Origin: a virus
Strand: one strand, 5' to 3'
Virus record (IMG/VR): IMGVR_UViG_3300045988_071280
Length of the DNA: 64,000 bases
The position numbers and the translations under genes are program-made. The notes beneath the pieces were generated by a model. The model worked only from the letters and a program-made list of their open reading frames with translations. It did not search any database and was not told the DNA's origin. Shown here one piece after another: positions 29,832 through 61,724 of this stretch (positions within the stretch are counted from its first letter, which is position 1; every line of letters begins with the position of its first letter).

Positions 29832-29967
29832 TTATAGCGGATTCTGTCTAAAGATAACAGAACGATAGGGTGCGTATACTGATACCCCACTATAACCCCA
29901 GTAAATCATACGACTGCCAGCTACAGGAGTACTTGCAGTTCCGCCTGAGATACCATCTAATCCCCCA
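29832..29967 (-). CDS. major capsid protein (putative), exon 5 of 5
   Basis: Not in the ORF track. After the omega-G at 29968, the minus strand reads T GGG GGA TTA ... CCG CTA TAA, which encodes GGLDGISGGTASTPVAGSRMIYWGYSGVSVYAPYRSVIFRQNPL*. The leading T completes the GT left open by exon 4. Confidence 0.75.
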
Positions 29968-30275
29968 CGTATTTTTCTTATATTTTCATATAAGCCAGAC
30001 TATATCATTAACTTATATTCTATTACCGTCTATAAGTTACCTCCCGTTTCCATATTTAACAATATGTACTCTACTCATTTATTCTCTAATATATTTCTTA
30101 TTAGATATATTTTCGATAGTCGTTGAACTTTGAATAAATATTTAAATAATATTTAAGCCTTAGCTGCTGATTAACATGTAGTAATTAATATGGACAATAC
30201 TATTTAGCCTTCCAGCAATTAGAGAGGTTTAATTTTTCTACATATCACTATGTAGCGGCGCTAGAGGAGTAGTTA
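29968..30275 (-). mobile_element. group I intron (P/Q/R/S family), ORF-less, 308 nt
   Basis: Minus-strand core elements: P AATTGCTGG (30212-30220), Q AATCAGCAGC (30163-30172), R GTTCAACGACTA (30117-30128), S GATATAGTC (29998-30006). P1 pairs exon GGCGU with AGCGCC and carries a U.G. A P2 hairpin CTACAT/ATGTAG follows. The omega-G is at 29968. Confidence 0.8.
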
Positions 30276-30760
30276 ACGCCAATTACATCAGTTTTTATCA
30301 TATCACAGCCTTTGAATGTCCAAGATTCAATAGCTGGTTTTCCGTTAGCTAAATCCGGAGTAAGATCTAGAATAAATCCAAATGCTTGATCAGGATATTC
30401 TATATTTAAAGCCTTATCCGGCATAAAGGTTATCGTATTACCTTGATATTCATAGCTAACAAAAGTATTACCTACTTTAATACCATCAACCGTTTCACCT
30501 ACTTTCTTCTTAACACCAGAAGATTTACTATACATCAAAGTAGCAGTAGGAGTCCATTTTCCAATTTCATCCATTAAGTTATCACCAACCTGATTCCAAA
30601 GTAAAGAGTTACAGATTAATACATAATCATTGCCAGTTAAATTCTTTGCCTTAGAGGTTAAGAAACTTAATGCTTCTTTGAAGTGTGAAGTAAGTAATTG
30701 ATCGAAAGAGATTAAGTATGCGTATCTTTCTATTTGAGGAATAATTCCATCGCCTATATA
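30276..30760 (-). CDS. major capsid protein (putative), exon 4 of 5
   Basis: Corresponds to track ORF 30248-30763, which needs a GTG pseudo-start. The exon is 485 nt, starts in phase 0 (YIGDGIIPQ...) and ends ...KTDVIGV with GT open. The ORF tail YSSSAAT* is read-through into the intron. Confidence 0.75.
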
Positions 30761-32127
30761 CACTATTTATACTTTATATTACTATAAAGATTAGACTATA
30801 TCTTTAACTTATCATTAATTTAAATACTTAAATAAATATCCTTTACAAGTTTTTCCTCTTCCTTTTAAAACTCTTCCACAACCTGGATATTGCTTACTAC
30901 ATTCTCCTACAGTTTTAAAAGTTTCTAATAATTCTCCATCTAAAGAATATCTTCCGACCATTCTTCCGGTATGAAGATACTTAGAAGATTCTTTATTTGG
31001 CATGGCTGGAATTTTTTCTATACTCCATTGATAACCTTGCCAAGTTCTATTTAATTTAATTGCACTACTAATACCCTTTTTTCCTAAAGCTCTTTCAGCT
31101 TCTGCAAAAGAACTATATTCATTTAAATATTCCCCAGAAAGGGAATATTGATATACAGGAGTATTTTTTAATTGCTTACATTTAGCTCTAGAATAATTAC
31201 CTTCTAATTCGTAAGATACATATTTATTATTTATCAAATATCCAGCTTTTATTGCTCTAATAACATTTCCTGTTGCAGAATTTAATTCTTTAGCAGCATC
31301 AGTTATAGATTGATAAAATTTTTCATAATTTCCATCTTTATCATATTGATAAACAGGAATTTTATGTTGATCAATAATAAAGTCTTTTGGATTTACTGAT
31401 TTAAATTTTTCAGTTGTCCATAGATATTTAGCACAAGGATGTTTTGTCATTATAGCAATACTTAATGTTGTATAATATCTATCTACAGCTCTTGAAGCAT
31501 CTGCAATAGATTTATATTCATTTATATATTCTCCTTCTAAAGAATATTGATATACAGCTTTAGCATTTACTCCTCTATCTCCCCCATTTCCTCCTAAAGC
31601 AGTGTTATACACATCCTTTCTTTTTAAAAATTCTTCATTAACAATAATTGATTCTAAATAATAAGCATCTTCTTCATTATCAAAAACTTGGATAGTTTTT
31701 CTAATAAAGGCTTTTACTCCATATTTATTAACAGCAGCTTGAAATACTGTTTTACTGAATTTATATGTAGAAGGTTGATTTATAACAACCCCACATCCTA
31801 AATACCCATCAAAAATATCTGGATTTTCGGTTTGATGTACTCCCACATATATTTTTTTATTAATTGTGTTAGTAGTTAGATATACTATATATTTCATATT
31901 TAAATTTTTATAAGTTAATTCCCATTTCCAGATAAAATCTGTACTCCTTGCGGATAGTCGTTGAACGTTCCTTTTGCGTTACTCAAAGAGCCTACTTATC
32001 AAAAGGCTTCGCTGCTGATTGTCTTTAAGTAGCAGATTAAAGATATTCCAGCAATTAAAGAATTTAATTTATCATACTGTTTCCAGTATGCGACCCATGT
32101 TTAACATAGACGTTTGTTAAAAGTCCC
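30761..32127 (-). mobile_element. group I intron (P/Q/R/S family) carrying a GIY-YIG homing endonuclease gene, 1367 nt
   Basis: Core elements: P 32048-32056, Q 32011-32020, R 31955-31966, S 30794-30802. P1 pairs exon GACCU with GGGUC. P2 is CATACTG-GAAA-CAGTATG. The ORF sits between R and S, i.e. in a P8-type position. Confidence 0.8.
30815..31897 (-). CDS. GIY-YIG homing endonuclease with four NUMOD/IENR1-like repeats, 360 aa
   Basis: The N-terminus MKYIVYLTTN...KIYVGVHQT...YLGCG...AVNKYG...FDNEEDAYYLE follows the GIY-(10-11)-YIG pattern. Four ~45-aa repeats of the type VYQYSLxGEYxNEY...A follow. The ORF lies wholly inside the intron. Confidence 0.85.
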   Translation of the reverse strand: MKYIVYLTTNTINKKIYVGVHQTENPDIFDGYLGCGVVINQPSTYKFSKTVFQAAVNKYGVKAFIRKTIQVFDNEEDAYYLESIIVNEEFLKRKDVYNTALGGNGGDRGVNAKAVYQYSLEGEYINEYKSIADASRAVDRYYTTLSIAIMTKHPCAKYLWTTEKFKSVNPKDFIIDQHKIPVYQYDKDGNYEKFYQSITDAAKELNSATGNVIRAIKAGYLINNKYVSYELEGNYSRAKCKQLKNTPVYQYSLSGEYLNEYSSFAEAERALGKKGISSAIKLNRTWQGYQWSIEKIPAMPNKESSKYLHTGRMVGRYSLDGELLETFKTVGECSKQYPGCGRVLKGRGKTCKGYLFKYLN

Positions 32128-32408
32128 AGGTCTCTGCGTTTGCGGGTCCACGATTGTAGCTTTCCCGTTGGCATCCACGTTACTGCGTGCCCAAAGATCG
32201 TGTTTAGCTTTAACTTCTAAGAAATTCTCAATAAGAGTCTTTTCCATTGAAGTCATAGTAAACAATTTTTCACTTCCTTTAGTTTCCGTATCACTAATTT
32301 TCAAGAATACATCTTCATTAGCTAAATAAGCTTGAGATGCATCAATATCATTTCTATGTAAAGTCAAGTAATTACGATGAACCTCCATATTAGATTGATA
32401 TTTTGTAG
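32128..32408 (-). CDS. major capsid protein (putative), exon 3 of 5
   Basis: Corresponds to track ORF 32101-32388. The exon is 281 nt, CT + 93 codons, encoding (S)TKYQSNMEVHRNY...DPQTQRP. The ORF tail GTFNKRLC* is intron read-through. Confidence 0.75.
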
Positions 32409-32639
32409 CGTTAGTACTTTATATCACTATAAAGATTAGACTATATCTTAATCTTATTATATAAGATCTTCTCTGCTTCGGAATTAAATATTCCTACTCC
32501 ATATTGGATAGTCGTTGAACGTTCTATATTGTATTTAAATACTCATATAGCTTCGCTGCTGATTGTCTTTAAATAAGATGTTCCAGCAATTCAGAGAATG
32601 TTTCAATATTTATTACTAAATAAAGGGGCCTACAATTTA
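32409..32639 (-). mobile_element. group I intron (P/Q/R/S family), ORF-less, 231 nt
   Basis: Core elements: P 32583-32591, Q 32555-32564, R 32509-32520, S 32439-32447. P1 pairs exon GGGU with GCCC. P2 is TATTTA-GTAA-TAAATA. The omega-G is at 32409. Confidence 0.8.
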
Positions 32640-32929
32640 ACCCAAAGTCGTGATAATCAAACGGATGAGCATTTGATAAGAAGTGAGTAGTCATACCCGG
32701 CTGACATGCGGAAGTATCCAAATATGACTGATAATCATTATCAATCAATCGAACAGTATATTCATAGAATTTATTACTCCTCCAAATTGGACGAGAAGTA
32801 ACATAACACTGTTGATGTGATTTATCTATTACAAAAATATCATGTTTATCATAGTATTTTTCCTTAAACAGCATCTTAATTTCTGTCCCTCCAATTCCAT
32901 CACCTTCGGGAACAGCGTAAAAAGGAATA
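32640..32929 (-). CDS. major capsid protein (putative), exon 2 of 5
   Basis: Corresponds to track ORF 32569-32874, and the frame stays open 18 codons further upstream. The exon is 290 nt: 1 + 96 codons + 1, encoding IPFYAVPEGDGIGGTEIKMLFKEK...HPFDYHDFG. Confidence 0.7.
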
Positions 32930-34223
32930 CGTTTAATGAACTATTCTATTTAAAGAATTTAGACTATATCATTTACTTATTTATGATATTTAAAGATATA
33001 ATCCTTATAATATTTATCACCCATCTGAATATTTTTTAATTTACTAGATGGGATATTGTATTTTTCTCTTACATCTTTTATACTATCTAAAGTCTCTATA
33101 TAATTTCCAAATGTATCATATATATCAATCGTTATTCCTTTAGAATAATATTTATCCGGAATATTTATTACTTCTGTGGTTGATATATAATAATCCTTAT
33201 ACCATCCATTATTATATAATATCACATTCTTAATTTTATTCCAAGAATGGAGCTTTATAACCTTCATCACCATCTTACCCTTAAATTGTCCTATATAAAC
33301 TCCATCTTTATTATATACATGATATATTAAATTCTTATAATTTGCTCTAGTTTTTGGAATAAATTCATCAACCAATTTATTAGATATATAATACTTATCT
33401 AATACCAAAGATTGATTTTTAATAGCTTTATTTATATCTAAATCTCCAAGATATTTAATACATTCATCCTTATCTAAGAACTCATTTAATAATTTCCCTT
33501 TTTTAGTATATAAATAAATAGTATTATTTAATTTATTTAAAGAATATTTAATAACATCTATCTCCGGTTCTAATGACCAATAGGAATTAAGAAATTTAGA
33601 TTTATTACTTATCGCGAATTGAAATTTTTTAGGAGATTCTCCATAAAAATCATATGCTTCTAAGGAATAATTCCATTTCTTCTCTAATTCTCCAGTTGTA
33701 TTAAATTGATATAAAGGAGATATGTTATTTACACTAGAACAATAATTATACGTATGATCGGAATTTAAAAAAGTATCATTAACTAATTCTAATTCCTTTT
33801 CATATGCCTCTTCTGGAGTATTAAATATATATAATATAGTCCTCTCAAAAGCCTTCGTCCCATATTTTTTAACAGCATATTGGAACGGAGTTTTTGGATA
33901 CATAAAAGTACTTGGTTGATTTATATAAACTCCAGATCCTAAATACCCATCAAAAATATCCGGATTTTCGGTTTGATGTATTCCGATATAAATTTTATTT
34001 AATTCTCCAACTTTAGATTTTAAATTTTTAGTAAGATATACAATATATTTCATAAGTAATTCAGTTTTTCAATCTTATTTATAAGATTTACAGGTTTCCC
34101 TTAGTCGTTGAACACTACTTTCATCAAAGTCATGCTGCTGATTGTCTCTAGTAGCAGTAAAGATTCCCAGCAATTTAAAGAATTTATTGTGAACCTCATT
34201 GATTCACATCCACGTCCCACTCA
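32930..34223 (-). mobile_element. group I intron (P/Q/R/S family) carrying a GIY-YIG homing endonuclease gene, ~1294 nt
   Basis: Core elements: P 34167-34175, Q 34134-34143, R 34102-34113, S 32962-32970. The omega-G is at 32930. The 5' splice site is ambiguous: 34224 (P1 CUAU/GUGG) and 34230 are both phase-compatible. Confidence 0.75.
32977..34053 (-). CDS. GIY-YIG homing endonuclease, 358 aa (paralog of 30815-31897)
   Basis: The N-terminal ~95 aa are clearly homologous to the other intron ORF (MKYIVYLTKN...IYIGIHQTENPDIFDGYLGSGV...AVKKYGTKAF). The C-terminal DNA-binding part has diverged. Confidence 0.85.
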   Translation of the reverse strand: MKYIVYLTKNLKSKVGELNKIYIGIHQTENPDIFDGYLGSGVYINQPSTFMYPKTPFQYAVKKYGTKAFERTILYIFNTPEEAYEKELELVNDTFLNSDHTYNYCSSVNNISPLYQFNTTGELEKKWNYSLEAYDFYGESPKKFQFAISNKSKFLNSYWSLEPEIDVIKYSLNKLNNTIYLYTKKGKLLNEFLDKDECIKYLGDLDINKAIKNQSLVLDKYYISNKLVDEFIPKTRANYKNLIYHVYNKDGVYIGQFKGKMVMKVIKLHSWNKIKNVILYNNGWYKDYYISTTEVINIPDKYYSKGITIDIYDTFGNYIETLDSIKDVREKYNIPSSKLKNIQMGDKYYKDYIFKYHK

Positions 34224-34441
34224 ATAGCAAAAGCATCAATACTCTTACGTCCGGGCTTAGGAATATCTTGATAAACCATATTTTCAATTCTCTCAGTTAA
34301 AGCTGATACAGTATGTCCGGGACATAAAGATGCAGCTAAACCTACTCTATGAGTAATTCGTCCCAAGAATTGGGAGAAATCATGAAAAGTTCTTGAGCCA
34401 TTCATATTGGCTCGATTTGAAATGTATTCTGCTACAAACAT
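34224..34441 (-). CDS. major capsid protein (putative), exon 1 of 5
   Basis: Corresponds to track ORF 34196-34441. The ATG lies 18 nt after the scaffold-like gene. The exon ends in phase 2. The boundary is uncertain by 6 nt. Confidence 0.65.
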
Positions 34442-34459
34442 TTTAAATTAAATTTAGAT

Positions 34460-35527: not shown

Positions 35528-35533
35528 TATTTA

Positions 35534-35824
35534 TTACAGAAGTTCTATATATTCCCCAAACTCTGCTAAAGACTTCTTTCTAATATTAAAAGGAGTAGAG
35601 GAAATAGTTTCTTTAAGAGAATTTTTATATTTATCATCTAATTCAAATGATTCTGATTCTACATTCTCTTCTAAAATTTTCATAATCTCTAAATCTCTTT
35701 TAATTGTAGATAAAGTTAAAGCTTTTTGGCTCGGAACTTCATAACAAAATAACATCAAACTTACATAATTAGCTGGACGTTGTGCATCCACTTTAATGTC
35801 AATAGGCTTATTTTCAATAATCAT
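35534..35824 (-). CDS. hypothetical protein, 96 aa
   Basis: ORF at the head of the scaffold-capsid operon, preceded by a promoter-like motif. Confidence 0.45.
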   Translation of the reverse strand: MIIENKPIDIKVDAQRPANYVSLMLFCYEVPSQKALTLSTIKRDLEIMKILEENVESESFELDDKYKNSLKETISSTPFNIRKKSLAEFGEYIELL

Positions 35825-35852
35825 AGTTCATTAATTTTTAGTTATTCATCCA

Positions 35853-35860
35853 CAAAAGTA
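35853..35860 (-). promoter_or_regulatory. Bacteroidota-type -7 promoter element (TAnnTTTG)
   Basis: The minus strand reads TACTTTTG about 29 nt upstream of the ATG at 35824, in a 75-nt intergenic gap. Confidence 0.35.
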
Positions 35861-35899
35861 GATAATATTTGTATGTAATACAATAAATAAATAAAAATT

Positions 35900-36752: not shown

Positions 36753-36753
36753 C

Positions 36754-36897: not shown

Positions 36898-36901
36898 ATT
36901 A

Positions 36902-37672: not shown

Positions 37673-37676
37673 ATTT

Positions 37677-38308: not shown

Positions 38309-38310
38309 AT

Positions 38311-38604: not shown

Positions 38605-38605
38605 A

Positions 38606-38746
38606 TTATATTATTTTAGCTCTTTGTTTTAATCGATGTATATCATCTTCTAAAGATTGGATTTTGTCTTTTATTATATTTAATTCTAAGGAATCTTTTT
38701 TGATAAAGATTCTATGTAAAAATGTTTTAATTTTATTTAATAACAT
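38606..38746 (-). CDS. possible small coiled-coil protein, 46 aa
   Basis: Unlisted ORF MLLNKIKTFLHRIFIKKDSLELNIIKDKIQSLEDDIHRLKQRAKII*. Its stop lies 1 nt before the next ATG. Confidence 0.3.
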   Translation of the reverse strand: MLLNKIKTFLHRIFIKKDSLELNIIKDKIQSLEDDIHRLKQRAKII

Positions 38747-38756
38747 ATTAATTAAA

Positions 38757-39094
38757 TTAATATCCTATAGCTAACCAAAAAAATTCACTTCTGGTATTTA
38801 CTGGAGCAGTTCCTACTAATTCCACTGTTAACGAGGAATTTGTGAAGGATTTAATAGTTAAAACATCTCCTTTAGACCAATAACCATAATAGTTATTAGG
38901 AGTGAGTTGCACCATACAGCATTTAGTAGGAAATGTTTTTGGATATGATACTGTTGCAGTCATACTTCCAGTATTAAAGTTACTAAGTCCTGACTGTATC
39001 AATATCCCCCCCCCTGTAAGGTATCTGCTTTTGTAGGAGCTGTTTTAGAGAATAAGGTATTTAAATTATCTTTGGTTATAAATTCCTTTGCCAT
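38757..39094 (-). CDS. small fibre-associated paralog D, interrupted by a -1 frame change at a G9 tract
   Basis: The ATG at 39094 gives MAKEFITKDNLNTLFSKTAPTKADTLQGGGY*, with the stop at 39001-38999. The rest (ILIQSGLSNF...EFFWLAIGY*, track ORF 38757-39002 with a TTG pseudo-start) is in the -1 frame. One extra G, or a -1 slip on the G9 run, joins the two parts. Confidence 0.6.
39006..39014 (-). repeat. homopolymeric G9 tract (C9 on plus strand) inside a coding region
   Basis: Counted directly in the text: aatat-ccccccccc-tgtaag. Confidence 0.95.
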
Positions 39095-39124
39095 TTATTA
39101 ATATTTTATTTAATTATTATATAT

Positions 39125-40244: not shown

Positions 40245-40277
40245 TATTTATAGAGGATTTTAAAGATATTTTATATA

Positions 40278-51900: not shown

Positions 51901-52364
51901 ATATTATCAGAATTTATTCTCATACTTAAATGGATAGTAGAAATATCTACCAAAGCTCCATCATTATATCTATATTCTGTAGAGTCTTTTTTATTAAAAA
52001 ACTCATATCCATCTTTTAATTGTACTCTATCCCAATATTTAAGAGTATCCCTCCAAGTACAGTGATAATATTTATCCTCTACTCTTAGTATATAAGATAT
52101 CCCATTCTTCGCGTTACCTGGGATATTATCTACTATATCCTCTACTGGACTTAAATGAGTAGGTTCTGTTACATCATTTAATTGAAGAATGTCTGTAGAT
52201 ATAATAACATCCGGAGATTGTTTAATAACAAGTTTTTTGGTAATAGGATTAAATTCTATTTCCTTAATTCTAAAATCCTCTACCCTTTTATCAAAACAAG
52301 ATTCAGGCGTTATATTATATACTTTACTTTCACATCCACTGGAATTTTGTGCTTTGGTAATCAT
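45930..52364 (-). CDS. giant tail fibre with repeat arrays and C-terminal S74-like intramolecular chaperone, 2144 aa
   Basis: The N-terminal third has about 6 repeats of the type xAGLMSxxDKxKLDxI. Motifs of the type YLPLSGGTLTG recur at least 4 times. The C-terminus has STSDIRFKSNLKSL...FTYNW...IGTSAQ...FSYERYT plus a coiled coil. Confidence 0.8.
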   Translation of the reverse strand: MITKAQNSSGCESKVYNITPESCFDKRVEDFRIKEIEFNPITKKLVIKQSPDVIISTDILQLNDVTEPTHLSPVEDIVDNIPGNAKNGISYILRVEDKYYHCTWRDTLKYWDRVQLKDGYEFFNKKDSTEYRYNDGALVDISTIHLSMRINSDNIQILNSSGDGVTLPVATQTTPGLFSKEDKTKLDSITKYVKEISFSGADTLVLDIVSSDGTESLPIREANINQNGLMSKEACLNLSRLLNTVNNEIYTKEEVQKLLESKVDVAPGKDLLDTSQIFKINQIYNYVEDVEYLDSNNRASIKVTTKDPTIGQSSSKILSFPDTSSAISGLMSPKYKDYIDSLKSYYTGDTTKEYTGQELQIIFPIYDPISKQLTSKYLVLDAATSSTAGLITAMEKNKLGNISSIIQAISDNTYNSNSVVLNLTSNNPQTGTEELVQIVFKSATPEKAGVMSSSDKGKLDNIVKYLTELTDTETTSATQAIIHYQSYNPFLNSYEDKYYSLPMATSTIAGSITSTDFNIIQGLKDINGNPLTYEGTPSKTWKIGDQILKNEKEGFSVRNEDDTEYGDLIVRNLTIKEDIVFGGDAFIIDTEEVKVTDNILTLNSGEQGEGVTKGISGLEIDRGKLPNYFIIFDESDDRFKCGTEGNQFPLMLRDNEPDMVDGAFLTWNSTFKRAQTTSTVPIQLALRFALQNLSEKDTDLIFKRVDNDLYLQYGDTNDKYLSLRVLDDILFKSSPSATKYVFDKEIWAPAFKRDDGYESAYLDTNIEDRKFLQYNPDKKLIYSSNMIYADRGSLNFAELEGDTNFIRIINSGGDLGIVGIKNYTTEQDIQTYFSFIISSDNLTPDENSELLIYTDTHKAFTFGNPIIIGNSQYYIGFQREGVRISNQGVGFVFTMDDDTITLIPSPERAIINTSSPELAFSSNIIIPTGFRTSDRSQILFADYSKLNKNYLTWDSNTNTITSIDGYDSLVAVNPDDPNKKVTLVYTKGGFIITSSSDVSGVPQNTLELSETVESNGSVIYNLNSTYTPLHVDFPMWGNFCDEDGKPFATVESLVGHYLPLSAGSINALTGPLYFSPISALVNKTDTGENAWALFMGDSTNGTSLYLGSFGDYETLIGGDLGNTALLNIDNSGNNYVTRLGYTDANGNIKSGIITSGNDQNSQTTIHTIGDNDIKHYKNGAEYIVYDTSNLNVEELLLNYTLEGNIIGTPKATRIKYTLSDSFGTLFLNNFRESIWGVNDSTSWIVPFRSNSGDSGLGPATSSSIGFAAGDTHAYISISPVSNNRSVIIGGGNNGKINWFEQVAFKSDINKLSTVYYPYSGRGYMTIGEDGRPILANNQGILFNTTSGAVEGIYVTTNAHLIIGGSKFNNIPVDIYNDLSIARILDRATNYSLLVFSNGGTEDSQYTHIGAEHGTTRIRSGLFNLVHDRGGTLYTVFDGYNFSRNLDTISINSSFNHLPMMAAQIKSGDATTDRGYPIQEAGSLVVIPGAYHGSSQIYGTYSTNRWFVRGGSNSLEDPTAHTSWKELATTTHLSNYLPLSGGTLTGSLNIGSSSQDVYNYIRIYRNNYTLETTVSGDNGILSLSNPNNTSATSMLKISPGGHVFINDEELAKVSQIPSTSDFLPLSGGVLSGSDRIVLRINSPSSAPAVDLIFSIGNSIKGGVGFESGSLGTFLSDGVNDKVFCLKNGPEIRTNSGTLIGEIPYKSDLDKYLPLSGGTLTRTTPGPVLSLKNTSSNKEAYMDFYKGDVRCGYIGASASNSEDMYLNAYGSRNVIIGTAQGFTRLESGANNLIHRRSGTDYTILDTYNIASLTIQFNGSTNTTYAPNAAKTVNITPAAIGAATSFHTHSSLLIEDTRNTALYPNNVGSNILKAIFTNNIMPTSDYWGGIHVHGWSSNYSSWELVGYNGNGGVPTKGLYFRTGILSTWNSWKRVAFADELTWDAIGGKPSTFTPSSHTHTKSQITDFPSSMPASDVYAWAKASTKPSYSWSEISGKPSIPSAETAATIMSKINSQSEITFSKHVVCSAGAGLQSTSDIRFKSNLKSLPDDTLNKVLNAPEFTYNWKDEKTTSIGTSAQYWEDKIPTLVHEMEDGTKTFSYERYTVVLQKALKEEHRLREEEKKRFKEEIDSLNTRLNDLTSLIQKLI

Positions 52365-52551: not shown

Positions 52552-52592
52552 ATATTATATATTAAATTTATTATTCTATTTAATTCTAAATT

Positions 52593-53171: not shown

Positions 53172-53971
53172 TACTTTCTACAATTACAAGAACTAAATCC
53201 AGTAGAGTATTTAAGGTAATCATTATTACAAAATCCTCCACAAACCTGAATCTCTTCTATAATTCTCTCGGCTTCATAATAACTACATTTATCTATTAAT
53301 CTATGGATTAATTCTAAAGCTATAAATACCATATTCCTATCTCTAAATACTTGAGAAATATTATTATCATTTTTTATATTACATCTAGTATATAATTTAT
53401 TATAATAGATATATTTTAATTTATTCTCGTAACAATATTCTAAATTCCCTAAAAGAAATGTCTCTTCCTCAATCCCTATTATATTAGAATTAGACTGATT
53501 ATTATATAAATCCATTATAGATATCTTCTTTTCAGTATAACTTCCGGATATAATAGTTATTTCATAAATCTCTACTTCTCCATTTGAAAGTTCTTTCGCG
53601 GAATAGAATATTTCTCCTTCCATATTTAAACTAGATGGAGATACTCCATGAACCCATTCGTAATTAGGTAACGCTAAATGATCTATTATATGCCATCCGT
53701 CTATTTTAGTAGAATAGTTTAATTTATAATCAGTATATTCCTGATCTGAATGACATACATAATAAAAATCTGATACTTTAGGATCATCTATAGTATTTAG
53801 AGTAATTAAATCAATAAATACAATATCTTTTGTTCTTAAATAATTAGCGGATATCTGAGATACTTCTGGATAGATACTACTAGTACTTATACCAGTAGTA
53901 TCCTTTAATGTAAATCCAGATATTCCGTATTCAGTTAATGAAATACTTAAATTTAATGAAATATTTTTCAT
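53171..53971 (-). CDS. hypothetical structural-module protein, 266 aa
   Basis: ORF whose start overlaps the portal stop by 4 nt and whose stop overlaps the next start by 1 nt. Confidence 0.45.
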   Translation of the reverse strand: MKNISLNLSISLTEYGISGFTLKDTTGISTSSIYPEVSQISANYLRTKDIVFIDLITLNTIDDPKVSDFYYVCHSDQEYTDYKLNYSTKIDGWHIIDHLALPNYEWVHGVSPSSLNMEGEIFYSAKELSNGEVEIYEITIISGSYTEKKISIMDLYNNQSNSNIIGIEEETFLLGNLEYCYENKLKYIYYNKLYTRCNIKNDNNISQVFRDRNMVFIALELIHRLIDKCSYYEAERIIEEIQVCGGFCNNDYLKYSTGFSSCNCRK

Positions 53972-54999
53972 TTTCCAAAATTTACTTCGTTATTTCTAGG
54001 ATTATTATCAAATAATTGTGCCCATTCAATATTAGCTTTCTTTTCTTCGATCTTATTCCTCTCTTTATCATTCTCATCTTTAGATTTAGCAGTAAACCAT
54101 TTAATAGAGGAATCTTGTTCTTTTTGTTTTAGATTTTCTACTTCTTTAATAGATTTTTGCAATTCCTCTTGAAGTTGCTGTATCTGTTGTTGAGCTTCTT
54201 TAAGAGCTTGATCATATTGCTGTATTTGTTGTTGAGCTTGTTGTATTTGATTATTCTCCTCTTTTTGACGTTTAATTGCATCTAATGTTATTTGTTTATA
54301 TTCTGTGATACTCTTACATCCAATAGCTTGTACTAATACATCAGCTGTTAATTGTCCTGATTTAATTAACTCAAGATTATATGCTTTTATAGTTTCTAAG
54401 TCTTGTAGAGCGGATTGAGTATCAGCAATATTTATATCAAAGTCTGTTACTGTATAATGTTCTGGAAGTGCTGTGAAAATAGCTTTTTGTTTCTCTCCAA
54501 GAATTATAGTTCCTTGAAATCCATCTTTATATACTACTTTAGCTATATTTAAACTATCTAAGAATAATTCTCTTAAAGCTAATGCCATGTTAGAGAAGTA
54601 TATTTTTGTGACAATTAGTGATTGATTAATTCCGGTTCTAACATTAGTAACAGCATCTCTGGTTTCAACTCCTCCAATAGCTTCTCTAAATGCTCCTGTT
54701 ATATTAGATGCAAGTTGCTCTATTTTTTCTATAGCTAGATCTAGAGCTTGCATGGATTGGTAGGATAAACTCATATCATATGTATTAAATACAGCATTTG
54801 GCATAGATTGTCCAGCCTCACTTTGGGAAGTATCTAATGCTGCGAATCCTTGTTTTACATACGCCATGAATTTAAGTAATCTGTTTGTTTCATCTTCCTC
54901 GTCTAAGAATGTGGGGATTTTAGAGAAATCTACTGCAATACCTTTTGTTCCACTTACTGCAATGGCATTATTTCGAAGGAAAAATAGTATATTATACAT
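53968..54999 (-). CDS. portal protein (putative), exon 2 of 2
   Basis: Corresponds to track ORF 53968-55002. An in-frame TAA lies directly upstream of the ATG ATG, so this cannot be a plain continuation of exon 1. The exon starts after the omega-G at 55000 (or at 54997). The C-terminus is a Q-rich coiled coil. Confidence 0.65.
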   Translation of the reverse strand: MYNILFFLRNNAIAVSGTKGIAVDFSKIPTFLDEEDETNRLLKFMAYVKQGFAALDTSQSEAGQSMPNAVFNTYDMSLSYQSMQALDLAIEKIEQLASNITGAFREAIGGVETRDAVTNVRTGINQSLIVTKIYFSNMALALRELFLDSLNIAKVVYKDGFQGTIILGEKQKAIFTALPEHYTVTDFDINIADTQSALQDLETIKAYNLELIKSGQLTADVLVQAIGCKSITEYKQITLDAIKRQKEENNQIQQAQQQIQQYDQALKEAQQQIQQLQEELQKSIKEVENLKQKEQDSSIKWFTAKSKDENDKERNKIEEKKANIEWAQLFDNNPRNNEVNFGK

Positions 55000-56116
55000 C
55001 ATTTATGTTCAATGTGGTTCGTTACTCCACATCCGGGAATTTACCCAGCTATATGTTTCCATATAGATCAGACTATATCATACATAATTGATCTAGTATA
55101 AGGTCTAAAAGATTTTTAGAAAAACATTCAGTTGATGTTTCATGTTCCCAATGTTTAGGCAAATATAAATTATTTTTAATTAGTCTTTTTAATTTAGTTT
55201 CTAATGTTTTACAATCTATAGGATTTTCAAAAGAAATAGTTTTAATTACTTCTATTTCATAGCCAAGATTTTTATACTCTTTAAATCTTCTAATTTGTCC
55301 GTTTTCTAAAGTATAAGATATTCCCAATTTATAAAAACTTTCTTCTTCATTATATAATCGTATAAGATAAAATGTATCACTACATTTCCAGTTTTTACAT
55401 TTTGGACATCCCCTACCCATAAATATATAATCATTATCTATAGATACTTCTCCATGTTCTGGACATATTAAAATAGATTTACCTCCGTGTCTACTAGTTT
55501 CAGTAATTTTAAAATCATACTTGTCTCCATAAATAAATTTAAGTTGATTGTAAAAATACTGTTTTCTATCAACCGCTGCCTCAATCGTAGGCATAAATCC
55601 TTTAGATATCAAATTTCCAGGAGTTACAGAAACTAAGCCAAATTGTGTTTCAAACAGCATTTTTGAGTTCATTCCACTATATTCAGATGCAGGCTTTATA
55701 TTATTATATATATGCTCTTGTTTTTCTTTCAATAGATTCATGAAATATTCAGTTTTGTTTATGGCTGCCTTTATTCCAGGAGTATAAAGTAAAACTTGTT
55801 TTGCTGTATTAAACGACATTACTCCATATTTGTCCTTTACTAAAATTGGTTTAGAAAGTCCTTTAAACCTACTTACCACTTCGATATCTTTATTATATAA
55901 AGACTCTACTTCCTTTTTAAATTGTTCTTCTGTGTACTTCATTCTTTTTCAAATTACTTATTAAATTATGTTTCCGTGCTTCGAACTCACTTGAGTCCTA
56001 TAATTAGTCGTTGAACCTTCCTTTAAAATATTTAAAGGCTTGGCTGCTGATTAGCATAGATAAATTATCTTTAGCTTCCCAGCAATTCTCGGAATTTACC
56101 CAGGACCTGTATATTA
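55000..56116 (-). mobile_element. group I intron (P/Q/R/S family) carrying a T5orf172/GIY-YIG-like endonuclease gene, ~1117 nt
   Basis: Core elements: P 56079-56087, Q 56043-56052, R 56005-56016, S 55071-55079. P1 pairs exon CAGGAU with GUCCUG and has a terminal U.G. The ORF stop TAA at 56116-56114 is the first intron triplet. Confidence 0.8.
55073..55942 (-). CDS. intron-encoded putative homing endonuclease, T5orf172 (GIY-YIG superfamily)-like C-terminal domain plus zinc knuckle, 289 aa
   Basis: The segment CPEHG...CPKC is followed by FYLIRLYNEEESFYKLGIS...R...E...TECF, which resembles the T5orf172 pattern. The ORF lies between R and S of the intron. The N-terminal half contains two related ~50-aa repeats. 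Confidence 0.55.
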   Translation of the reverse strand: MKYTEEQFKKEVESLYNKDIEVVSRFKGLSKPILVKDKYGVMSFNTAKQVLLYTPGIKAAINKTEYFMNLLKEKQEHIYNNIKPASEYSGMNSKMLFETQFGLVSVTPGNLISKGFMPTIEAAVDRKQYFYNQLKFIYGDKYDFKITETSRHGGKSILICPEHGEVSIDNDYIFMGRGCPKCKNWKCSDTFYLIRLYNEEESFYKLGISYTLENGQIRRFKEYKNLGYEIEVIKTISFENPIDCKTLETKLKRLIKNNLYLPKHWEHETSTECFSKNLLDLILDQLCMI

Positions 56117-57322
56117 ATCCTGTAAATCTGCTGTAGCTAATACTAAACTAAACGGGATATTTTGTCTCGTTGTCATAAATAACCCATTAACAGATAATGT
56201 ACATTCCTTAGGATTATCCATAGATCTAACTACATTTAAATCTACATCCCTAACAATATAAATATCACTAGCAATTTTAACTACAGAGTATCTATGCATT
56301 ACACCATCTTTTCCTGTCTCTATATATTCTACCTCATATACAGTAATTAATCTATTATTATATCCATACATTCCAGTATTCCCATCCCAAACAGGAGTTA
56401 CCTCTAGTCCCCCTAATATTCCGGTAGCAAATTCCGAATCCTCTGTAGTAGCAGCATTTATTGGTCCGGTAGATCTTATTATATACTTCTGATTATCAGT
56501 ATAATATGCCTTCTCTAATTCATCTCTTAACTTAGTTTTATCAGCTTCTGTTAATTCTGAATTATATTTAGATAGGATCTGATCTACTGTCATGTAATAT
56601 CTACAAACAGCTCTAGGAGATTTATTTAAATAATAACTATTAGGATTTTTCTCCACAAAAGTATTAATAGGATTTAATCCTTCTATATCCACATTATTCC
56701 CACTTCTAGAAGGTTGTGTTTTAAAATAAAGTGTTCCGGAGATTAATAAATCCGTCATTAATAATCTAGCTTTTATATCTAAATCAATACTTTTAGATTG
56801 AGATAAATATGTTATAATATTCTGTGCTGCTATTTCATATTCAGAAATAAAATTTTTATCTATATCTTCTTTTAATAACTGTAGAGACTTTTCAGTTAGA
56901 GGATCTTTTGTTATAGGAGTATTCTGATCTCCGAATTTAGAGAGAATAGTATTATATAAATTACTCATATATAATTCCCTAACTCCATCTAATACTTTAA
57001 GCTGTCTCTCTCTATTTATTAAAGATAATGTCTTTTGATCTTTACATGTAATTTGCATATTTAATGGAGCATCTAGAAACTTCCCAACTAAATAATCTAT
57101 GTGCTTTTTTATAAGTGGTATAAATTGTATTTGTGTCGGAGTTCCTATTCCATAATTTTCTTCGAAATGCTTATATTGATCTAAATCCATCTTCCCGTGA
57201 TAGTAGTTATAAGCTTTTCTTATTGCTACTTTATCATATACGAGATCAGAAATAGCTTGGTTGGCCTTCTGAATTTGATAGTCTTTTGATCCTCGTTTGT
57301 ACTCGACGCTCATCCAAATCAA
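56117..57322 (-). CDS. portal protein (putative), exon 1 of 2
   Basis: 402 codons ending ...LATADLQD, exactly at the predicted U.G splice site. The gene is adjacent to terL. The spliced product would be 745 aa. An alternative start is Met at 57313. Confidence 0.65.
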
Positions 57323-57587
57323 TTTTTTGTCCTACGAAGTATCTAGTTAGATTTAAACCTCGAAGGTGTAGTTCTTTCTTTATTTTTTCTAAAAACTTCT
57401 CTTTACTATCACATTGGATATATATACATAAAGGAGTTAAGTAATCTTCTGTTATATACATTTTAAGTATATAACCGTCCTCTGTTTTAATTATATCCAT
57501 TGGTTTATTATATATCGCTCCATATAATTCTAATATGTATTCTTTAATCATACATATTAAATATTCTTTTTCAGTCGTATTAATCAT
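57246..57587 (-). CDS. hypothetical protein, 113 aa
   Basis: ORF whose ATG overlaps the terL stop by 8 nt. Its 3' end overlaps the portal ORF start by 77 nt. Confidence 0.45.
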   Translation of the reverse strand: MINTTEKEYLICMIKEYILELYGAIYNKPMDIIKTEDGYILKMYITEDYLTPLCIYIQCDSKEKFLEKIKKELHLRGLNLTRYFVGQKIDLDERRVQTRIKRLSNSEGQPSYF

Positions 57588-57772
57588 ATACTGAATCTGT
57601 TCTAGATATTAATACTTTTAAATCCTCTGGAATTCCATCATCTGTAGGTATTTTTCCGAAATGTTTTACTCCATTAGAATCATAATAATATCCTATTTTA
57701 CTTATTTTAATTTTTTTCTTTTTCTCACCAATTCCTCCTAGTAATCTTAGTTCTTGATCGCCCATTTCGCAC
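57580..57772 (-). CDS. terL: terminase large subunit, exon 4 of 4
   Basis: Corresponds to track ORF 57580-57765. The exon is G + 64 codons: (M)CEMGDQELRLLGG...TDSVYD*. The leading G completes the AT left open by exon 3. Confidence 0.65.
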
Positions 57773-58041
57773 CATATTTGTTATCTATAAGGCTTTTTAT
57801 CCTTATATTCTTATAATTTCTTATAAGTTCAGCATATATTTTCATCTTATATTTAAATAAGATGTTCCGCACTCGTGGAAGGATTATTACTCTCATTAAC
57901 GTTCACCTTCTATGCGTTACAATGGCTAACGATGTTTTAGCTTATCTCGGTATTAGCATGGTATTTAAACTTTAACTTTCACCGATTTTGCGGAATTATT
58001 TTATTACCTTAAATTTCTTTAAGGAGGGACATGTAAGGTTT
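57773..58041 (-). mobile_element. group I intron (terL family), ORF-less, 269 nt
   Basis: P1 pairs exon GGGGAU with GUCCCU and carries a U.G. P2 is CCTTAAA-GAAA-TTTAAGG. P3 is TTCCGCA/TGCGGAA. The 3' end is GATAACAAATATG followed by the exon. It is homologous to the other two terL introns. Confidence 0.7.
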
Positions 58042-59060
58042 ATCCCCATCGCAGCGATAATATCAAACTTCCTCTTATTCTCATAAGAATAATCTTTTAA
58101 TTCATTTAACATCTCCACAGAATCAATTTTATCCCAAAATTCATTAACATAATCCTGAATAAGTTCAAGATAATACTCAATAACTCTTTTTGAGGGATAA
58201 ATACCATACATACTAGAATTTAAAGATTTCTTCTTAGATACATCTGTACTATTCGGAGATTGTAATTTTTTCATTAATAAATATTGTTTTCCTTTATCCT
58301 GAAAATAACTTACAATAGCTGTTCTGGAACTTTCTAATACTGCTTTTGCTCCATACCATTCTAATAATAGAATTGTCTGATTATAAGCCGTTCTAATATT
58401 CTCGGGTCTATCTTTATATATAGCTACATATTTATTCCCATCAAGTCCATAATTTCTCTTCTTTATAACTAAACAGAAATCAGATGTATCCTTCTGTCCA
58501 GTAGATTGATCAATACCTTGGTCAATAGAGTCAATTCCAGCAACATAAAGATTAGGTATTAAATCTCCATTCTCATCTCTTATAGGCTCTTCAAATATTT
58601 TAACTTTACCATTAGGAGAAGAGATGAATTTAATATTATCTCTACCTCCATCTGTAGCTAAAGCAAGTATACCAATTTTTGGTTTTATTCCGTAGCCATG
58701 AACTTCTATATCTGTTAATCTTTGTGCAATTAAATTCTGATTGAACATATTATCTCCTTTCCTAGATAAAGCTTCTTGGAAAGTCCAACAATACTCTGCA
58801 CAATGTACCATATAAGCAAAGGGATCATTAGAGTATCTTTGACGTTCAATCATTAAAAATTCTTCTGCTTTCTTACGTATTGTAACTCCTCGATTATCTA
58901 TTATCCCAGGTTGCATTACTATAGCGGTAGACGGGATAAAGTATGCTGTATAGACTGTACGATTATCTGAGGAGTGATTATGTTTATATGGTAAGATTCC
59001 GAAGGAAATTGGATCAAGAAACATTCGTTCTAGTCCTTCTAAGGATGGACCGCTATCTCC
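58042..59060 (-). CDS. terL: terminase large subunit, exon 3 of 4 (nuclease domain)
   Basis: Corresponds to track ORF 57996-59063, which needs a GTG pseudo-start. It contains RNase H-like nuclease motifs YVAGIDSIDQG, TSDFCLVI and FDIIAAMG. The exon is 1019 nt and ends in phase 2. The ORF tail INLTCPSLKKFKVIK* is intron read-through. Confidence 0.8.
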
Positions 59061-60194
59061 CACTTTGTTATCTCTAGAGCTTTTTATCTCTAGATTCTTA
59101 CACTTCTTAATTTATGTAAGGTCAGCATATATTTTCATCTGTTCTAGATGTCGAACACTCGTGGTAGGATTATATTTATTCACCTACTATGCGTTACAGT
59201 ATCAATTAACCTTTCGTAATTTAATTGATTACCTCGGGATTAGCATCACAGCTTTCCCCGATTTTGCTCGATTTTCTCAATGAAGATTCCTCTTCAAGCC
59301 GGCAAAATTCTTCGTAAATTTTATATTTTCTTTCTAAGTAAATAGTAGAATCTTTATATAACATTCTAGCTACTTTTCTAGCTTTATAATTACTATAACT
59401 AATTTTATATGCTTTATTATTTTGTTTAGGACAAACTTTAGTATATTCTCCTAAAAACTCTACTATACGTTGTAAGAAATCTTTAGTTCCAACAAATCCT
59501 AAATTTTCCCTAACTTTATTAGTATTATTTACAGGGTAAATTCCAAGAGTCCCATCTCCATCAAGATAACCTCTAATAAAATCATATATAAGAGATTTAG
59601 TTTTAAAAATAGAAGTATCTGGAAAAACTAAAGTAAGAGATTTTCTAGGAGTACATCCTTTAGAATTTAATGCTTCCCATATATGTTTGTTTCTAACAGA
59701 AAATCTACATACATCATCCTTTCCTTTACCATATTGAGGAGATATTCTTATTTTGTCCTCTGTGTATTCTAAAAACTCTTGAAATTTTTTTAAGTGTTTC
59801 CAGTCTTTGGCAGCTAAATTAATTTCTAATTTATATTCTTTAGATCCTATATTTCCATCTGCATATAAAAATCCTAGCCAGTATGCCTTTTCCTCAGTAT
59901 CTATAGTATCAAATACTGTTTCATTAATTCTACATCTATTTTGAGCATTTATGACTTCTATACCTCTCTTTTTTAAATGTCTAGAAATTAATCTTCTATC
60001 AAGACCGTATTTTTCACCTAATTTTGTTAAGCTTCTAGAATTTTCTGGAGTTTCCAAATATTCATTTATAGCATTTTCTAGTAGTAATTGTTTTTGTTCA
60101 CTTAGCATATATATTACATTTTATAATTAAACATTATTTATTACAAATGTAATATAAAATATTAATATTTACAAGTGGAGAAAAATATATCTTT
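59061..60194 (-). mobile_element. group I intron (terL family) carrying a LAGLIDADG homing endonuclease gene, 1134 nt
   Basis: P1 pairs exon CCGGU with GCCGG, which lies downstream of most of the ORF. P2 is TGAAGA-GGAA-TCTTCA. P3 is TCGAGC/GTTCGA. P4 is TCGGG/CCCGA. The omega-G is at 59061. Confidence 0.75.
59221..60108 (-). CDS. double-motif LAGLIDADG homing endonuclease with N-terminal HTH, 295 aa
   Basis: Motif 1 is YWLGFLYADGNIG and motif 2 is FIRGYLDGDGTLG. The N-terminus has an HTH-like segment LTKLGEKYGLDRRLISRHLKKRG. The ORF is not in frame with the terL exons. Confidence 0.9.
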   Translation of the reverse strand: MLSEQKQLLLENAINEYLETPENSRSLTKLGEKYGLDRRLISRHLKKRGIEVINAQNRCRINETVFDTIDTEEKAYWLGFLYADGNIGSKEYKLEINLAAKDWKHLKKFQEFLEYTEDKIRISPQYGKGKDDVCRFSVRNKHIWEALNSKGCTPRKSLTLVFPDTSIFKTKSLIYDFIRGYLDGDGTLGIYPVNNTNKVRENLGFVGTKDFLQRIVEFLGEYTKVCPKQNNKAYKISYSNYKARKVARMLYKDSTIYLERKYKIYEEFCRLEEESSLRKSSKIGESCDANPEVIN

Positions 60195-60621
60195 ACCGGT
60201 ACCATAAGCAATCTTAAACCCAACTCTTTGTCCAATTACCTTAATAAGAGCATCTCCTTGAATCCATTTTTTAATCAATTCGGGGTCAGAACCTGCTTCC
60301 TCATATATCAACAATTCACATCGATCACCTCTGACTTTAGAAGGTTTATCTGCTACGATACCTGTTATCATAGATTTAAATCCAGATTCATTACCTTCTC
60401 TATCTTTCTTTGATGCTCTTTTTTGGACCATAGTATTTATCGCTTGGCGTAAATGCTTAAATCCATTCTCTGTTTCTGTATTTAAATAATCCAATTGTAC
60501 CCAGCATTTCTCTAATGTCTTAGCTAAGAAATCACTAGTTGCTGCGGTATATATAGATTGAGACTCTGGTTCACATGTATACATTGCAACTCCATTATTT
60601 GCTCCCATTTCACTGAAACCG
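60195..60621 (-). CDS. terL: terminase large subunit, exon 2 of 4 (ATPase core)
   Basis: Corresponds to track ORF 60162-60608, and the frame stays open upstream (GFSEMGANNG...). The Walker B/coupling segment is CELLIYEEAG. The exon is 1 + 142 codons and ends ...KIAYGTG. Confidence 0.8.
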
Positions 60622-60915
60622 CTTCTGTTATCATAAAGACTTTTTATTCTTTATTTCCTGGAGTTTCCTCCTTACTATATTTAGATTTAATCATCTAAAG
60701 GATCGGCGCACGTTTTTATCTCATATTTAAATATAAGATATTCCGAACTCGTGGGAAGATTATTACTCTCTTAACGTTCACTTCCTGCGCTCTACGATAA
60801 TTAATTGATATTTAATCATCTCGGCATTAACATAGTTTATATTTAAACCTTAGTCTTTACCGATATTTCGGAATTTATTACCCCTAAATTACTTTAAGGG
60901 AGGCCCGGTATTTTA
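60622..60915 (-). mobile_element. group I intron (terL family), ORF-less, 294 nt
   Basis: P1 pairs exon GGGCU with GGCCU. There are two adjacent U.G pairs, so the boundary is uncertain by 1 nt. P2 is CCCTTAAA-GTAA-TTTAGGGG. P3 is TTCCGAA/TTCGGAA. The 3' end is GATAACAGAAG followed by the exon. Confidence 0.7.
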
Positions 60916-61724
60916 AGCCCACGTCCCTTTAAAACAAGAGCATCTTTATTTGTTTTCCTACATAATTCCAGATAATGAAAATATTCATATTGTTTTGCTA
61001 GAAACATTGGAAAAGATGTAGCACGTTTACCTTTTTTTGTTCCTCCTGTATTTAATATAATCGGAGTTTGCATTCGATAGAAATTTAAATAAAAATAATT
61101 CCATCCAGTTATAGTATAACCATGTGAACTATATCCCTCAGTACATCTTCTAAATCTCTCATCCCAGAAATTATTATATGCAGGACCTTTATAAGCATAC
61201 ATCTCATACTTCCCTGTAGCTTCTTTAGTCATCGCATCTTCTCTGAACCAATCAGGATTAAAATCTAATCCTTGTGTTTCTGTTATAGGTCTATACCCAG
61301 TAAGTTCATACGAAAGTTCGGGATCAAAGAAATCTACTGGATCTCCTATTTTAACATCCCAATCAGTAAATACTTCTGATTGTTCTAGAGCTTTAGTCTT
61401 TAATTTACTATATAAATAATCATCTATTTCAACTTCATCTCTAGCAATTTTATAATTAGATAAATCTTTAGATATATAAGAATTATCATATAATTTCTGC
61501 TCTTCCGATTCATCTTCTTTTAACTTTTCTGGAGTATCGTAGATACTAAGATCTTTTACTATTGTTTCAGTATCTAAAGAATTTAAAAGTTCCTTTGTAG
61601 TAGGTTTCTTTTTTACAACTCTTTTAGGTTTTTCTGGTTCGGAATCTACTTTTTTAGGAACATCTTTCTTTGCCTTTACTTTAGATACATTACCTTTTGC
61701 TCCATATGTAATTTTCCTAGCCAT
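60916..61724 (-). CDS. terL: terminase large subunit, exon 1 of 4
   Basis: Corresponds to track ORF 60894-61724. It ends ...ALVLKGRG-L. Joined to exon 2 it gives a Walker A-like KGRGLGFSE. The ORF tail KIPGLP* is intron read-through. Confidence 0.75.

Follow-up and report, generated by a model that had tools for sequence, protein, structure and literature searches.

Eight apparent group I introns of two lineages in the capsid, portal, and terminase genes of a probable crAss-like phage

Phage T4 carries three group I introns in genes of nucleotide metabolism (td, nrdB, and nrdD), one per gene; these belong to subgroup IA2 and are associated with GIY-YIG endonucleases of the I-TevI type. Several introns can share a single gene, as in orf142 of the Staphylococcus phage Twort, which contains three group I introns, and in the multi-intron genes of the Bacillus phages AR9 and PBS1. 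In the Zeta crAss-like phages, with published genomes of 145 to 192 kb (PMC7886860), group I introns occur at high density and divide the capsid gene into five fragments (PMC7886860, PMC12386605). Yutin et al. reported in 2021 up to 14 introns per genome (PMC7886860, where AR9 is also cited), and a 2025 paper found that near-identical Zeta genomes differ mostly in their homing-endonuclease open reading frames (ORFs) (PMC12386605); both papers found introns solely via the protein domains of the endonucleases (PMC7886860, PMC12386605). The stretch analyzed here, referred to as the window, comprises 64 kb of a larger genome, IMG/VR record IMGVR_UViG_3300045988_071280. Its genes for the major capsid protein (MCP), the portal protein, and the terminase large subunit (TerL) appear to have been invaded by mobile group I introns, four in the capsid gene, one in the portal gene, and three in terL, a reading to which we assign a probability of roughly 0.9.

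The window probably comes from a large crAss-like (Crassvirales-type) gut phage of the “Zeta” group. Its TerL, portal, and MCP proteins match those of crAss-like phages, and its IMG/VR relatives sit on contigs of 144 to 185 kb, features shared with the Zeta and Delta phages. As in the Zeta phages, the capsid gene is in five pieces separated by group I introns with endonuclease ORFs; unlike the Delta-group TerL, which contains inteins, the terL gene of the window has three introns. In tblastn searches, the closest GenBank records were unannotated human-gut “Bacteriophage sp.” contigs, followed by cultured and uncultured crAss-like phages. Megablast of both gene regions against GenBank phages found no close relative, so that protein-level searches were needed. 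A preliminary description of the window had mentioned introns in such genes of some crAss-like metagenomic genomes, and these are indeed published (PMC7886860). Since Yutin et al. described intron-rich crAss-like phages in 2021, what the window contributes is detail and not a new principle, namely, ORF-less introns, exact junctions, the demonstration that the terL lineage is group I, a blind spot of Rfam, and population data for each site.

Like the T4 introns, those of the window include ORF-less and ORF-containing copies side by side and have free-standing GIY-YIG ORFs looped out of the ribozyme, with a catalytic domain matching I-TevI. Unlike in T4, there are up to four introns per gene, the interrupted genes are late structural ones, and the ORF lies in P8, not in P6 or P9. 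Twort and AR9/PBS1 likewise have several introns per gene, but the packing is denser here, with four introns in a 1.45-kb coding sequence; the capsid-type intron core shows blastn similarity to AR9/PBS1, one match adjoining the AR9 terL gene.

All eight introns listed in the preliminary description (about 6.0 kb, or about 9% of the window) were located. They sum to 5978 to 5981 nucleotides (nt) (∼5.98 kb), or 9.3% of the window, and account for 69% of the capsid gene span. Their sizes agree with the ranges given earlier, 1117 to 1367 nt with an endonuclease ORF and 231 to 308 nt without one, the value of 1367 nt reflecting an alternative junction of MCP intron 3. The three genes are organized as follows (aa, amino acids):

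29832-34441, minus strand: major capsid (MCP) gene, 4 introns, 5 exons
34202..34441, minus strand: MCP exon 1, aa 1-80, collinear with the MT835470.1 MCP
32941..34201, minus strand: MCP intron 1, 1261 nt, group I, P/Q/R/S type, ORF in the P8 region
32640..32940, minus strand: MCP exon 2
32409..32639, minus strand: MCP intron 2, 231 nt, group I, ORF-less
32128..32408, minus strand: MCP exon 3
30764..32127, minus strand: MCP intron 3, 1364 nt, group I, ORF in P8 (alternative 3' end at 30761, giving 1367 nt)
30276..30763, minus strand: MCP exon 4
29968..30275, minus strand: MCP intron 4, 308 nt, group I, ORF-less
29832..29967, minus strand: MCP exon 5, including the stop codon
53968-57313, minus strand: portal gene, 1 intron, 2 exons
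56117..57313, minus strand: portal exon 1, starting with the ATG at 57313 or possibly, farther upstream, with the TTG at 57322, collinear with the MT835470.1 portal protein
55000..56116, minus strand: portal intron, 1117 nt, group I, P/Q/R/S type
53968..54999, minus strand: portal exon 2
57580-61724, minus strand: terL gene, 3 introns, 4 exons
60916..61724, minus strand: terL exon 1, ending in KGRGL^GFSE (a caret marks the junction here and below), collinear with the MT835470.1 TerL
60622..60915, minus strand: terL intron 1 (site A), 294 nt, group I, terL type, ORF-less
60195..60621, minus strand: terL exon 2
59061..60194, minus strand: terL intron 2 (site B), 1134 nt, group I, terL type, ORF in the P1 loop
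58042..59060, minus strand: terL exon 3
57773..58041, minus strand: terL intron 3 (site C), 269 nt, group I, terL type, ORF-less
57580..57772, minus strand: terL exon 4, including the stop codon

Each upstream exon frame meets a stop codon within a few to ∼70 nt past the junction, and reading resumes later, often in another frame. The capsid, TerL, and portal genes of MT835470.1 are uninterrupted, and tblastn of their proteins tiles the window exons with no residue lost or added (MT835470.1 residues 3-83, 84-182, 185-278, 279-433, and 434-474 for the capsid; 27-199, 200-343, 342-685, and 686-727 for TerL; 10-395 and 395-733 for the portal protein). When the frame had to stay intact, the base preceding the 5' splice site to be U, and the last intron base to be G, one homolog-compatible junction per site remained; the terminal G (omega G) is found in seven of the eight introns, the junctions being set independently by intron-less alleles or homologs. 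The predicted spliced products are an MCP of 481 aa, which matches PHROG 11589 (major head protein) after splicing in silico, a portal protein of 742 aa (PHROG 6547, portal protein), and a TerL of 815 aa (PHROG 6681, terminase large subunit). Gene callers would present these three proteins as 11 fragments plus “hypothetical” ORFs, whereas the junctions restore them at full length.

Two junctions were considered for MCP intron 3: ...AGACCU^GUGUAUAUA, which keeps a Val codon and gives an intron of 1364 nt, and ...AGACCU^UAUAUA, which drops this codon and gives 1367 nt. In loci L029, L031, and L040, this site contains no intron and reads ...QRPVYIGDG, and the window would therefore be spliced as CCU^GUG UAU, with the Val residue kept and an intron of 1364 nt. 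By inspection, the P1 pairing GACCU/GGGUC, in which the cleavage position is ambiguous, and the P10 pairing GUGU/ACAU also favor the 1364-nt intron, so that the junction probably lies 3 nt away from the one in the preliminary description.

Measured against a 40%-identical homolog, the insertion points fall in the most conserved stretches (KGRGL^GFSE, YGTG^GDSGP, DIIAAMGM^CEMGD, and RP^VYIGDG), the first of which, at the end of terL exon 1, we take to be the Walker A motif; such placement would be expected of homing endonuclease targets. The confinement of the introns to the three genes, as originally described, holds for these 64 kb by every check made (gaps, Rfam, nhmmer, and ORFs). All noncoding gaps of at least 150 nt on the minus strand lie in these genes, except for 38605-38756, 38964-39124, and the edge of the window at 63845-64000; the Rfam search gave no intron match beyond these genes, and nhmmer profiles of both intron families match the window at these eight places only.

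The presence of the introns was mapped in 45 related IMG/VR loci from at least 9 metagenome datasets, 23 of them with TerL/portal genes and 22 with MCP genes, the counts per site being taken from relatives with 96 to 100% identical proteins. Six of the eight introns are precisely absent from some near-identical genomes, in which the exons join with 0 nt between them at the predicted junction, and six of the eight sites are known in both ORF-less and ORF-carrying forms across genomes:

terL site A: present in 7, absent from 11 (0-nt join); 288-295 nt, or 1048 nt with a LAGLIDADG ORF (2 relatives)
terL site B: present in 15, absent from 3 (0-nt join in L007); 284 nt (ORF-less) or 1134 nt
terL site C: present in 12, absent from 6 (0-nt join); 269-273 nt, 325-326 nt (ORF remnant), or 1042-1043 nt (ORF-containing)
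portal site: present in 7, absent from 11 (0-nt join); 261-264 nt (ORF-less, 5 relatives) or 1117 nt (2 relatives)
capsid site 2: present in 13, absent from 9 (0-nt join); 231-242 nt, or 1101 nt (ORF-containing, 4 relatives)
capsid site 4: several relatives without the intron (0-nt join); 308-309 nt, or 1369 nt (ORF-containing, L046)

MCP intron 1 is found in 22 of the 22 related MCP loci; the one sequence lacking it is the distant MT835470.1. For MCP intron 3, no absence was recorded, but L029, L031, and L040 read through its insertion point without interruption. The exact joining of intron-less alleles at the predicted junctions means that the elements are mobile and excludes assembly artifacts and insertions at the protein level. 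The earlier suggestion that stages of endonuclease gain and loss are preserved side by side is strengthened as well: the related contigs, from an abundant group of gut phages, are a population snapshot of the homing-endonuclease life cycle, in which near-identical genomes show empty, ORF-less, remnant, and ORF-bearing versions at one and the same nucleotide.

Synonymous changes clustered within 10 to 20 nt of the insertion sites separate intron-plus from intron-minus alleles, as seen by comparing window positions 60895-60935, 58030-58060, and 56105-56135 with L011, L013, and L007. At terL site A, the intron-plus flanks CGTGGGCT^CGGTTTCAGT correspond to intron-minus CGAGGATT^AGGATTTAGT; at terL site C, GGGGAT corresponds to GGGAAT, and at the portal site, CAGGAT to CAAGAT. 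The varying bases are P1/P10 partners. These changes may represent co-conversion tracts or cleavage-resistant variants of the target.

The introns form two lineages of one kind, with the ORF in P8 in the capsid/portal lineage and in the P1 or P5 loop in the terL lineage. All five capsid and portal introns are group I introns, the core fold of this type being supported by Rfam structural alignments and by conserved sequence elements. They contain, in the correct order, the elements P (AATTGCTGGAA-like), Q (AATCAGCAGC), R, and S (A[AT]GATATAGTC); the exact R 12-mer, GTTCAACGACTA, is found in five copies, all on the minus strand (four in the capsid gene and one in the portal gene), compared with 0.08 expected from shuffles. 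In the portal intron, which is also matched by nhmmer, Q and R are exact and P and S near-exact. The Rfam group I intron model RF00028 (gathering score, 50 bits) recognizes MCP introns 2 (87.4 bits) and 4 (70 bits) above threshold; MCP intron 1 (33.7 bits) and the two halves of MCP intron 3 (42.1 and 27.7 bits) remain below it because the ORF splits the model, taking the place of its P8 portion. By inspection, a P1 helix of 4 to 6 bp with the U·G pair can be drawn for seven introns (all but MCP intron 3), and a P10 helix of 3 to 7 bp for all eight. Examples are P1 GUGAAU/GUUCAC, with U·G at the splice site, and P10 UUCAU/AUGAG in MCP intron 1, P10 CUACAA/UUGUAG in MCP intron 2, and P1 CAGGAU/GUCCUG in the portal intron; in MCP intron 4, the U·G pair of P1 involves U30276 (Rfam alignment and inspection).

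The three terL introns were originally set apart as a separate family. They are indeed a distinct lineage but not another class of element, as covariation identifies them as group I introns too. Their 3' signature, ATAAAAAG-N7-GATAACA, occurs three times in the window, each time in terL, against 0.09 copies expected from shuffles; the three introns can be aligned with each other over their entire cores, and the 3' core of intron 2 matches those of the other two. Minimum free energy folds of individual terL introns contained the hairpins but missed the long-range P3 and P7 helices, which were derived by comparing the three sites and distant relatives. The comparison comprised copies at sites A to C in close relatives and copies of the same lineage in distant TerL genes (35 to 63% identical; same sites A and B; L004, L025, L027, L053, L069, L107, and L112). 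The resulting fold consists of P1, a GNRA-capped P2, P3, J3/4 (AAA), P4-P5, P6, and P7 in the 5' half, followed by P7.1, P8, J8/7 (AAAAUA), the P7 3' strand, P9, and P9.1 (loop AUAAAAAG), and ends with GAUAACA, a few bases, and the terminal G. In a plain MAFFT alignment, 41 pairs of P2, P3, P4, P7, P7.1, P8, and P9.1, including the P3/P7 pseudoknot, are 97.5% paired, compared with 26 to 46% in slid-register controls, and 26 of them show compensatory double changes, a result matched by none of 500 column shuffles. When searched alone, terL intron 3 aligns with RF00028 from end to end, the helices being assigned in the same way (43.3 bits, below 50). In one distant relative (L004, site A), C-G replaces U·G in P1. 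As in the T4 introns, a hairpin, P7.1, is placed between the P7 5' strand and the P3 3' strand, and this insertion, judged by group I architecture, suggests an IA-like subgroup. Gap-tolerant pairwise identities of the intron cores are 0.72 to 0.87 throughout and fail to separate the families because the cores are AT-rich; these values were therefore not used for phylogeny.

Four of the introns carry an endonuclease ORF:

32977..34053, minus strand: GIY-YIG homing endonuclease ORF, 358 aa, in MCP intron 1 (PHROG 314, E = 9e-14)
30815..31897, minus strand: GIY-YIG homing endonuclease ORF, 360 aa, with NUMOD1 repeats, in MCP intron 3 (PHROG 314, E = 2.5e-28)
55073..55942, minus strand: endonuclease ORF, 289 aa, in the portal intron (PHROG 681, endonuclease, E = 4e-22)
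59221..60108, minus strand: LAGLIDADG homing endonuclease ORF, 295 aa, in the P1 loop of terL intron 2 (PHROG 4645, E = 3e-57)

The two GIY-YIG ORFs are paralogs with similar N termini and diverged C termini, as first noted: they are 31% identical overall, with strong similarity in approximately the first 100 residues, and NUMOD1 repeats are recognizable only in the ORF of MCP intron 3 (Pfam, E = 2.3e-22). No further GIY-YIG paralog was found among the window ORFs. A search of the PDB with a single GIY-YIG sequence returned nothing relevant; a profile (A3) built from the window ORFs and relatives linked to them by jackhmmer matched the I-TevI catalytic-domain structures 1LN0 and 1MK0 (E = 3.6e-19 and 1.4e-18). 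The Tyr, Tyr, Gly, Glu, and Asn columns of the A3 alignment are invariant, and the window ORFs carry HQTENPDIFDGY in place of the canonical R..H motif. In the N-terminal regions (33960-34053 and 31805-31897), HQTENPDIFDGYLG replaces the Arg/His motif in this GIY-YIG clade, which may have a variant active site or consist of inactive enzymes.

The ORF of the portal intron additionally matches PHROG 559 (HNH endonuclease, E = 1e-10) but no Pfam family at threshold, and can be listed as a predicted endonuclease, unclassified. The ORF of terL intron 2 scores just above the Pfam cutoff for LAGLIDADG_3 (22.6; cutoff, 22.5) and below it for LAGLIDADG_1 (21.9; cutoff, 23.1), and its translation shows the motifs LGFLYADGN and RGYLDGDGT. 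As the ORF-less allele of 284 nt reveals, its last ∼28 codons (59221-59305, ...FCRLEEESSLRKSSKIGESCDANPEVIN before the stop) coincide with the guide sequence and with strands of P2, P3, and P4, so that this segment is protein coding and catalytic RNA at once. In relatives, sites A and C contain two more LAGLIDADG paralogs, inserted in the P5 loop, which are 50% identical to each other and 28 to 32% identical to the window ORF. These ORFs end inside P4'-P6 and have the C terminus YYVNTEVSQIISDH in common. The 3' exons of terL introns 1 and 3 (60600-60621 and 57755-57772) share the sequence GTG(C)GAAATGGG (SEMG and CEMG in the protein), at a different distance from each insertion point; this may be a coincidence or a common recognition element of the paralogous LAGLIDADG enzymes found at these sites in relatives.

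The comparisons described above establish that the genes are interrupted, where exactly the junctions lie, that the introns are optional, how the RNAs are structured, and to which families the endonucleases belong. The expected course of events is that of other group I introns. After transcription, the introns would fold as ribozymes whose internal guide sequence pairs with the end of the upstream exon (P1, with U·G) and the start of the downstream exon (P10). A free guanosine would attack the 5' splice site, and the freed exon end would then attack after the terminal G of the intron, ligating the exons and restoring the capsid, portal, and TerL mRNAs from late transcripts. It can soundly be inferred, as the preliminary description did, that production of capsid, portal, and terminase would depend on eight ribozyme reactions. 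In mixed infections, the endonucleases would cleave alleles lacking the intron, which would then be copied into them during repair. The four introns without an ORF would have lost their endonuclease or never gained one; they may survive since they are seldom lost precisely and, once spliced out, do next to no harm.

Several points weigh against this reading. Splicing and homing as such are inferred from the sequences. The protein-compatible junction of MCP intron 3 cannot combine U at position -1 with a terminal G (an omega G is possible there only with G, not U, as the last exon base), and the canonical junction (1367 nt) would remove one conserved Val. For the GIY-YIG ORFs, the Pfam model PF01541 gives 11.9 bits (cutoff, 22.6) for one and no match for the other, and alignment A3 shows that both lack the conserved Arg of canonical members such as I-TevI, which makes their endonuclease activity uncertain. 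Finally, RF00028 misses terL introns 1 and 2 and the portal intron at every threshold tried, and terL intron 3 scores below its gathering score. A search of the 33-kb region at E ≤ 10 gave no match to a terL or portal intron, nor did terL intron 1 when searched alone. These misses can be attributed to the ORF insertions and to the divergence of the lineage.

Among the alternatives, it is conceivable, though on balance unlikely, that the introns are kept for a benefit, their endonucleases cutting intron-less competitors in coinfection (interference or marker exclusion) or guanosine-dependent splicing gating the late proteins. Competition via intron endonucleases has reportedly been observed in other phages, namely, SPO1/SP82 and phiKZ-like phages. 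Intron content is the main difference between near-identical genomes (see also PMC12386605), showing frequent exchange in mixed infections, and the synonymous flank differences between allele types would be expected under endonuclease pressure. However, those differences are equally well explained as co-conversion tracts, selfish homing followed by decay predicts the same pattern, and half of the introns contain no endonuclease ORF. Somewhat less probable still is a maintained arms system, in which ORF-bearing introns, sitting at the best-conserved codons of the three genes, would destroy or convert coinfecting intron-less relatives and ORF-less copies would serve as immunity alleles that block cleavage; if true, it would explain nearly every combination of occupied sites among near-identical genomes and the eight Q-R-S sets in the capsid gene of a relative, described below.

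That some introns no longer splice, the genome being that of a defective or decaying phage with broken structural genes, is very improbable. The noncanonical junction of MCP intron 3 and the three introns without an Rfam match could be read this way, but the exons are free of stops and 96 to 100% identical in protein to those of many relatives, the ribozyme cores are conserved with compensatory changes, and many contigs, independent of each other and as long as 185 kb, contain the same introns. Hardly credible at all is the interpretation of the insertions as inteins, insertion domains, or assembly chimeras: TerL inteins have been reported in other crAss-like phages (PMC7886860), but here, each insertion breaks the exon frame with stops, every endonuclease ORF stands alone and has a start and a stop of its own, PHROG and Pfam scans found no Hint domain in any ORF, and contigs from at least 9 datasets carry the same insertions at identical nucleotide positions. 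The preliminary description had named translated spacers and a chimeric assembly as what would speak against introns; the intron-less alleles exclude both.

Group II introns and translational bypass were also considered and rejected. A group II intron is a six-domain RNA of at least ∼400 nt that starts with GUGYG and usually contains a reverse transcriptase ORF. The ORF-less copies in the window are 231 to 308 nt long, the 5' ends are AAA, UAA, CAA, or GGG, and the ORFs code for DNA endonucleases; the Rfam search found no group II intron match.

The intron density of the window is not exceptional for its clade. Positions 1700-7200 of L050 (IMGVR_UViG_3300045988_084568, a contig shared with L026) contain eight Q-R-S sets in the capsid gene, read as eight putative group I introns in a 1.45-kb coding sequence. 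Two of these sites, at aa 274 and 279, are separated by only five codons, and a pair of Q-R-S sets near aa 458-462 would represent a mini-exon or a nested intron. The contig also holds three terL introns and one portal intron, which would make 12 introns in three genes.

Within the window, the two families are gene specific, as the preliminary description had it; in relatives, they are not. A hybrid capsid intron at residue 386, not present in the window, was found in L034 (4446-4706) and also in L036, L037, L049, and L050. Its core elements are of the P/Q/R/S type, but its CACGAGTG segment, P8 hairpin (identical), P9.1 hairpin, and GGATAACA tail are those of the terL type, suggesting that the two lineages may have exchanged modules. 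The terL-type lineage is also found in other genes of other phages. Its signature pattern occurs in at least 120 IMG/VR stretches; nhmmer confirmed nearly all of the 120 loci retrieved, of which only 9 have a crAss-like TerL, portal, or capsid context. In GenBank, blastn matches to the terL-type core were obtained in 107 phage records (67 to 85% identity), including a DNA polymerase gene of an Alicyclobacillus phage and tape-measure and other genes of unrelated phages. In the Streptococcus thermophilus phage P4761, a terL-type element lies between two TerL coding sequences and scores 52.5 bits with RF00028, which places it above the gathering score, whereas the terL copies of the window fall below. 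The terL and lysin introns of S. thermophilus phages, as well as introns of Staphylococcus, Clostridium, and Bacillus phages, resemble the terL-type core described here, but the S. thermophilus introns belong to phages of another family infecting another host phylum and occur one per gene, compared with three in the terL gene of the window.

At its gathering score, RF00028 found the terL-type intron in none of 15 IMG/VR loci in which nhmmer shows one, and this lineage is systematically underannotated. Given that the model at threshold also catches only two of the eight window introns, the ORF-less group I introns of phage metagenomes are probably badly undercounted.

The window has a G+C content of ∼29%, all its genes are on the minus strand, and they use the standard code. 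Two long ORFs between the portal and capsid genes, of 2144 aa (45930-52364) and 791 aa (40278-42653), are both uninterrupted, even though their neighbors are full of introns; the C-terminal domain of the latter resembles tail-fiber and baseplate families. The gaps at 38605-38756 and 38964-39124 flank a small ORF with a TTG start, and neither contains a match to the intron families. Among the more distant relatives, the capsid homolog of L002 (301-1719; MT835492.1) has 4 in-frame TAG codons and the TerL homolog of L004 (1010-5239; MT835539.1) has 14, with in-frame stops of no other kind; TAG is therefore probably read as a sense codon there.

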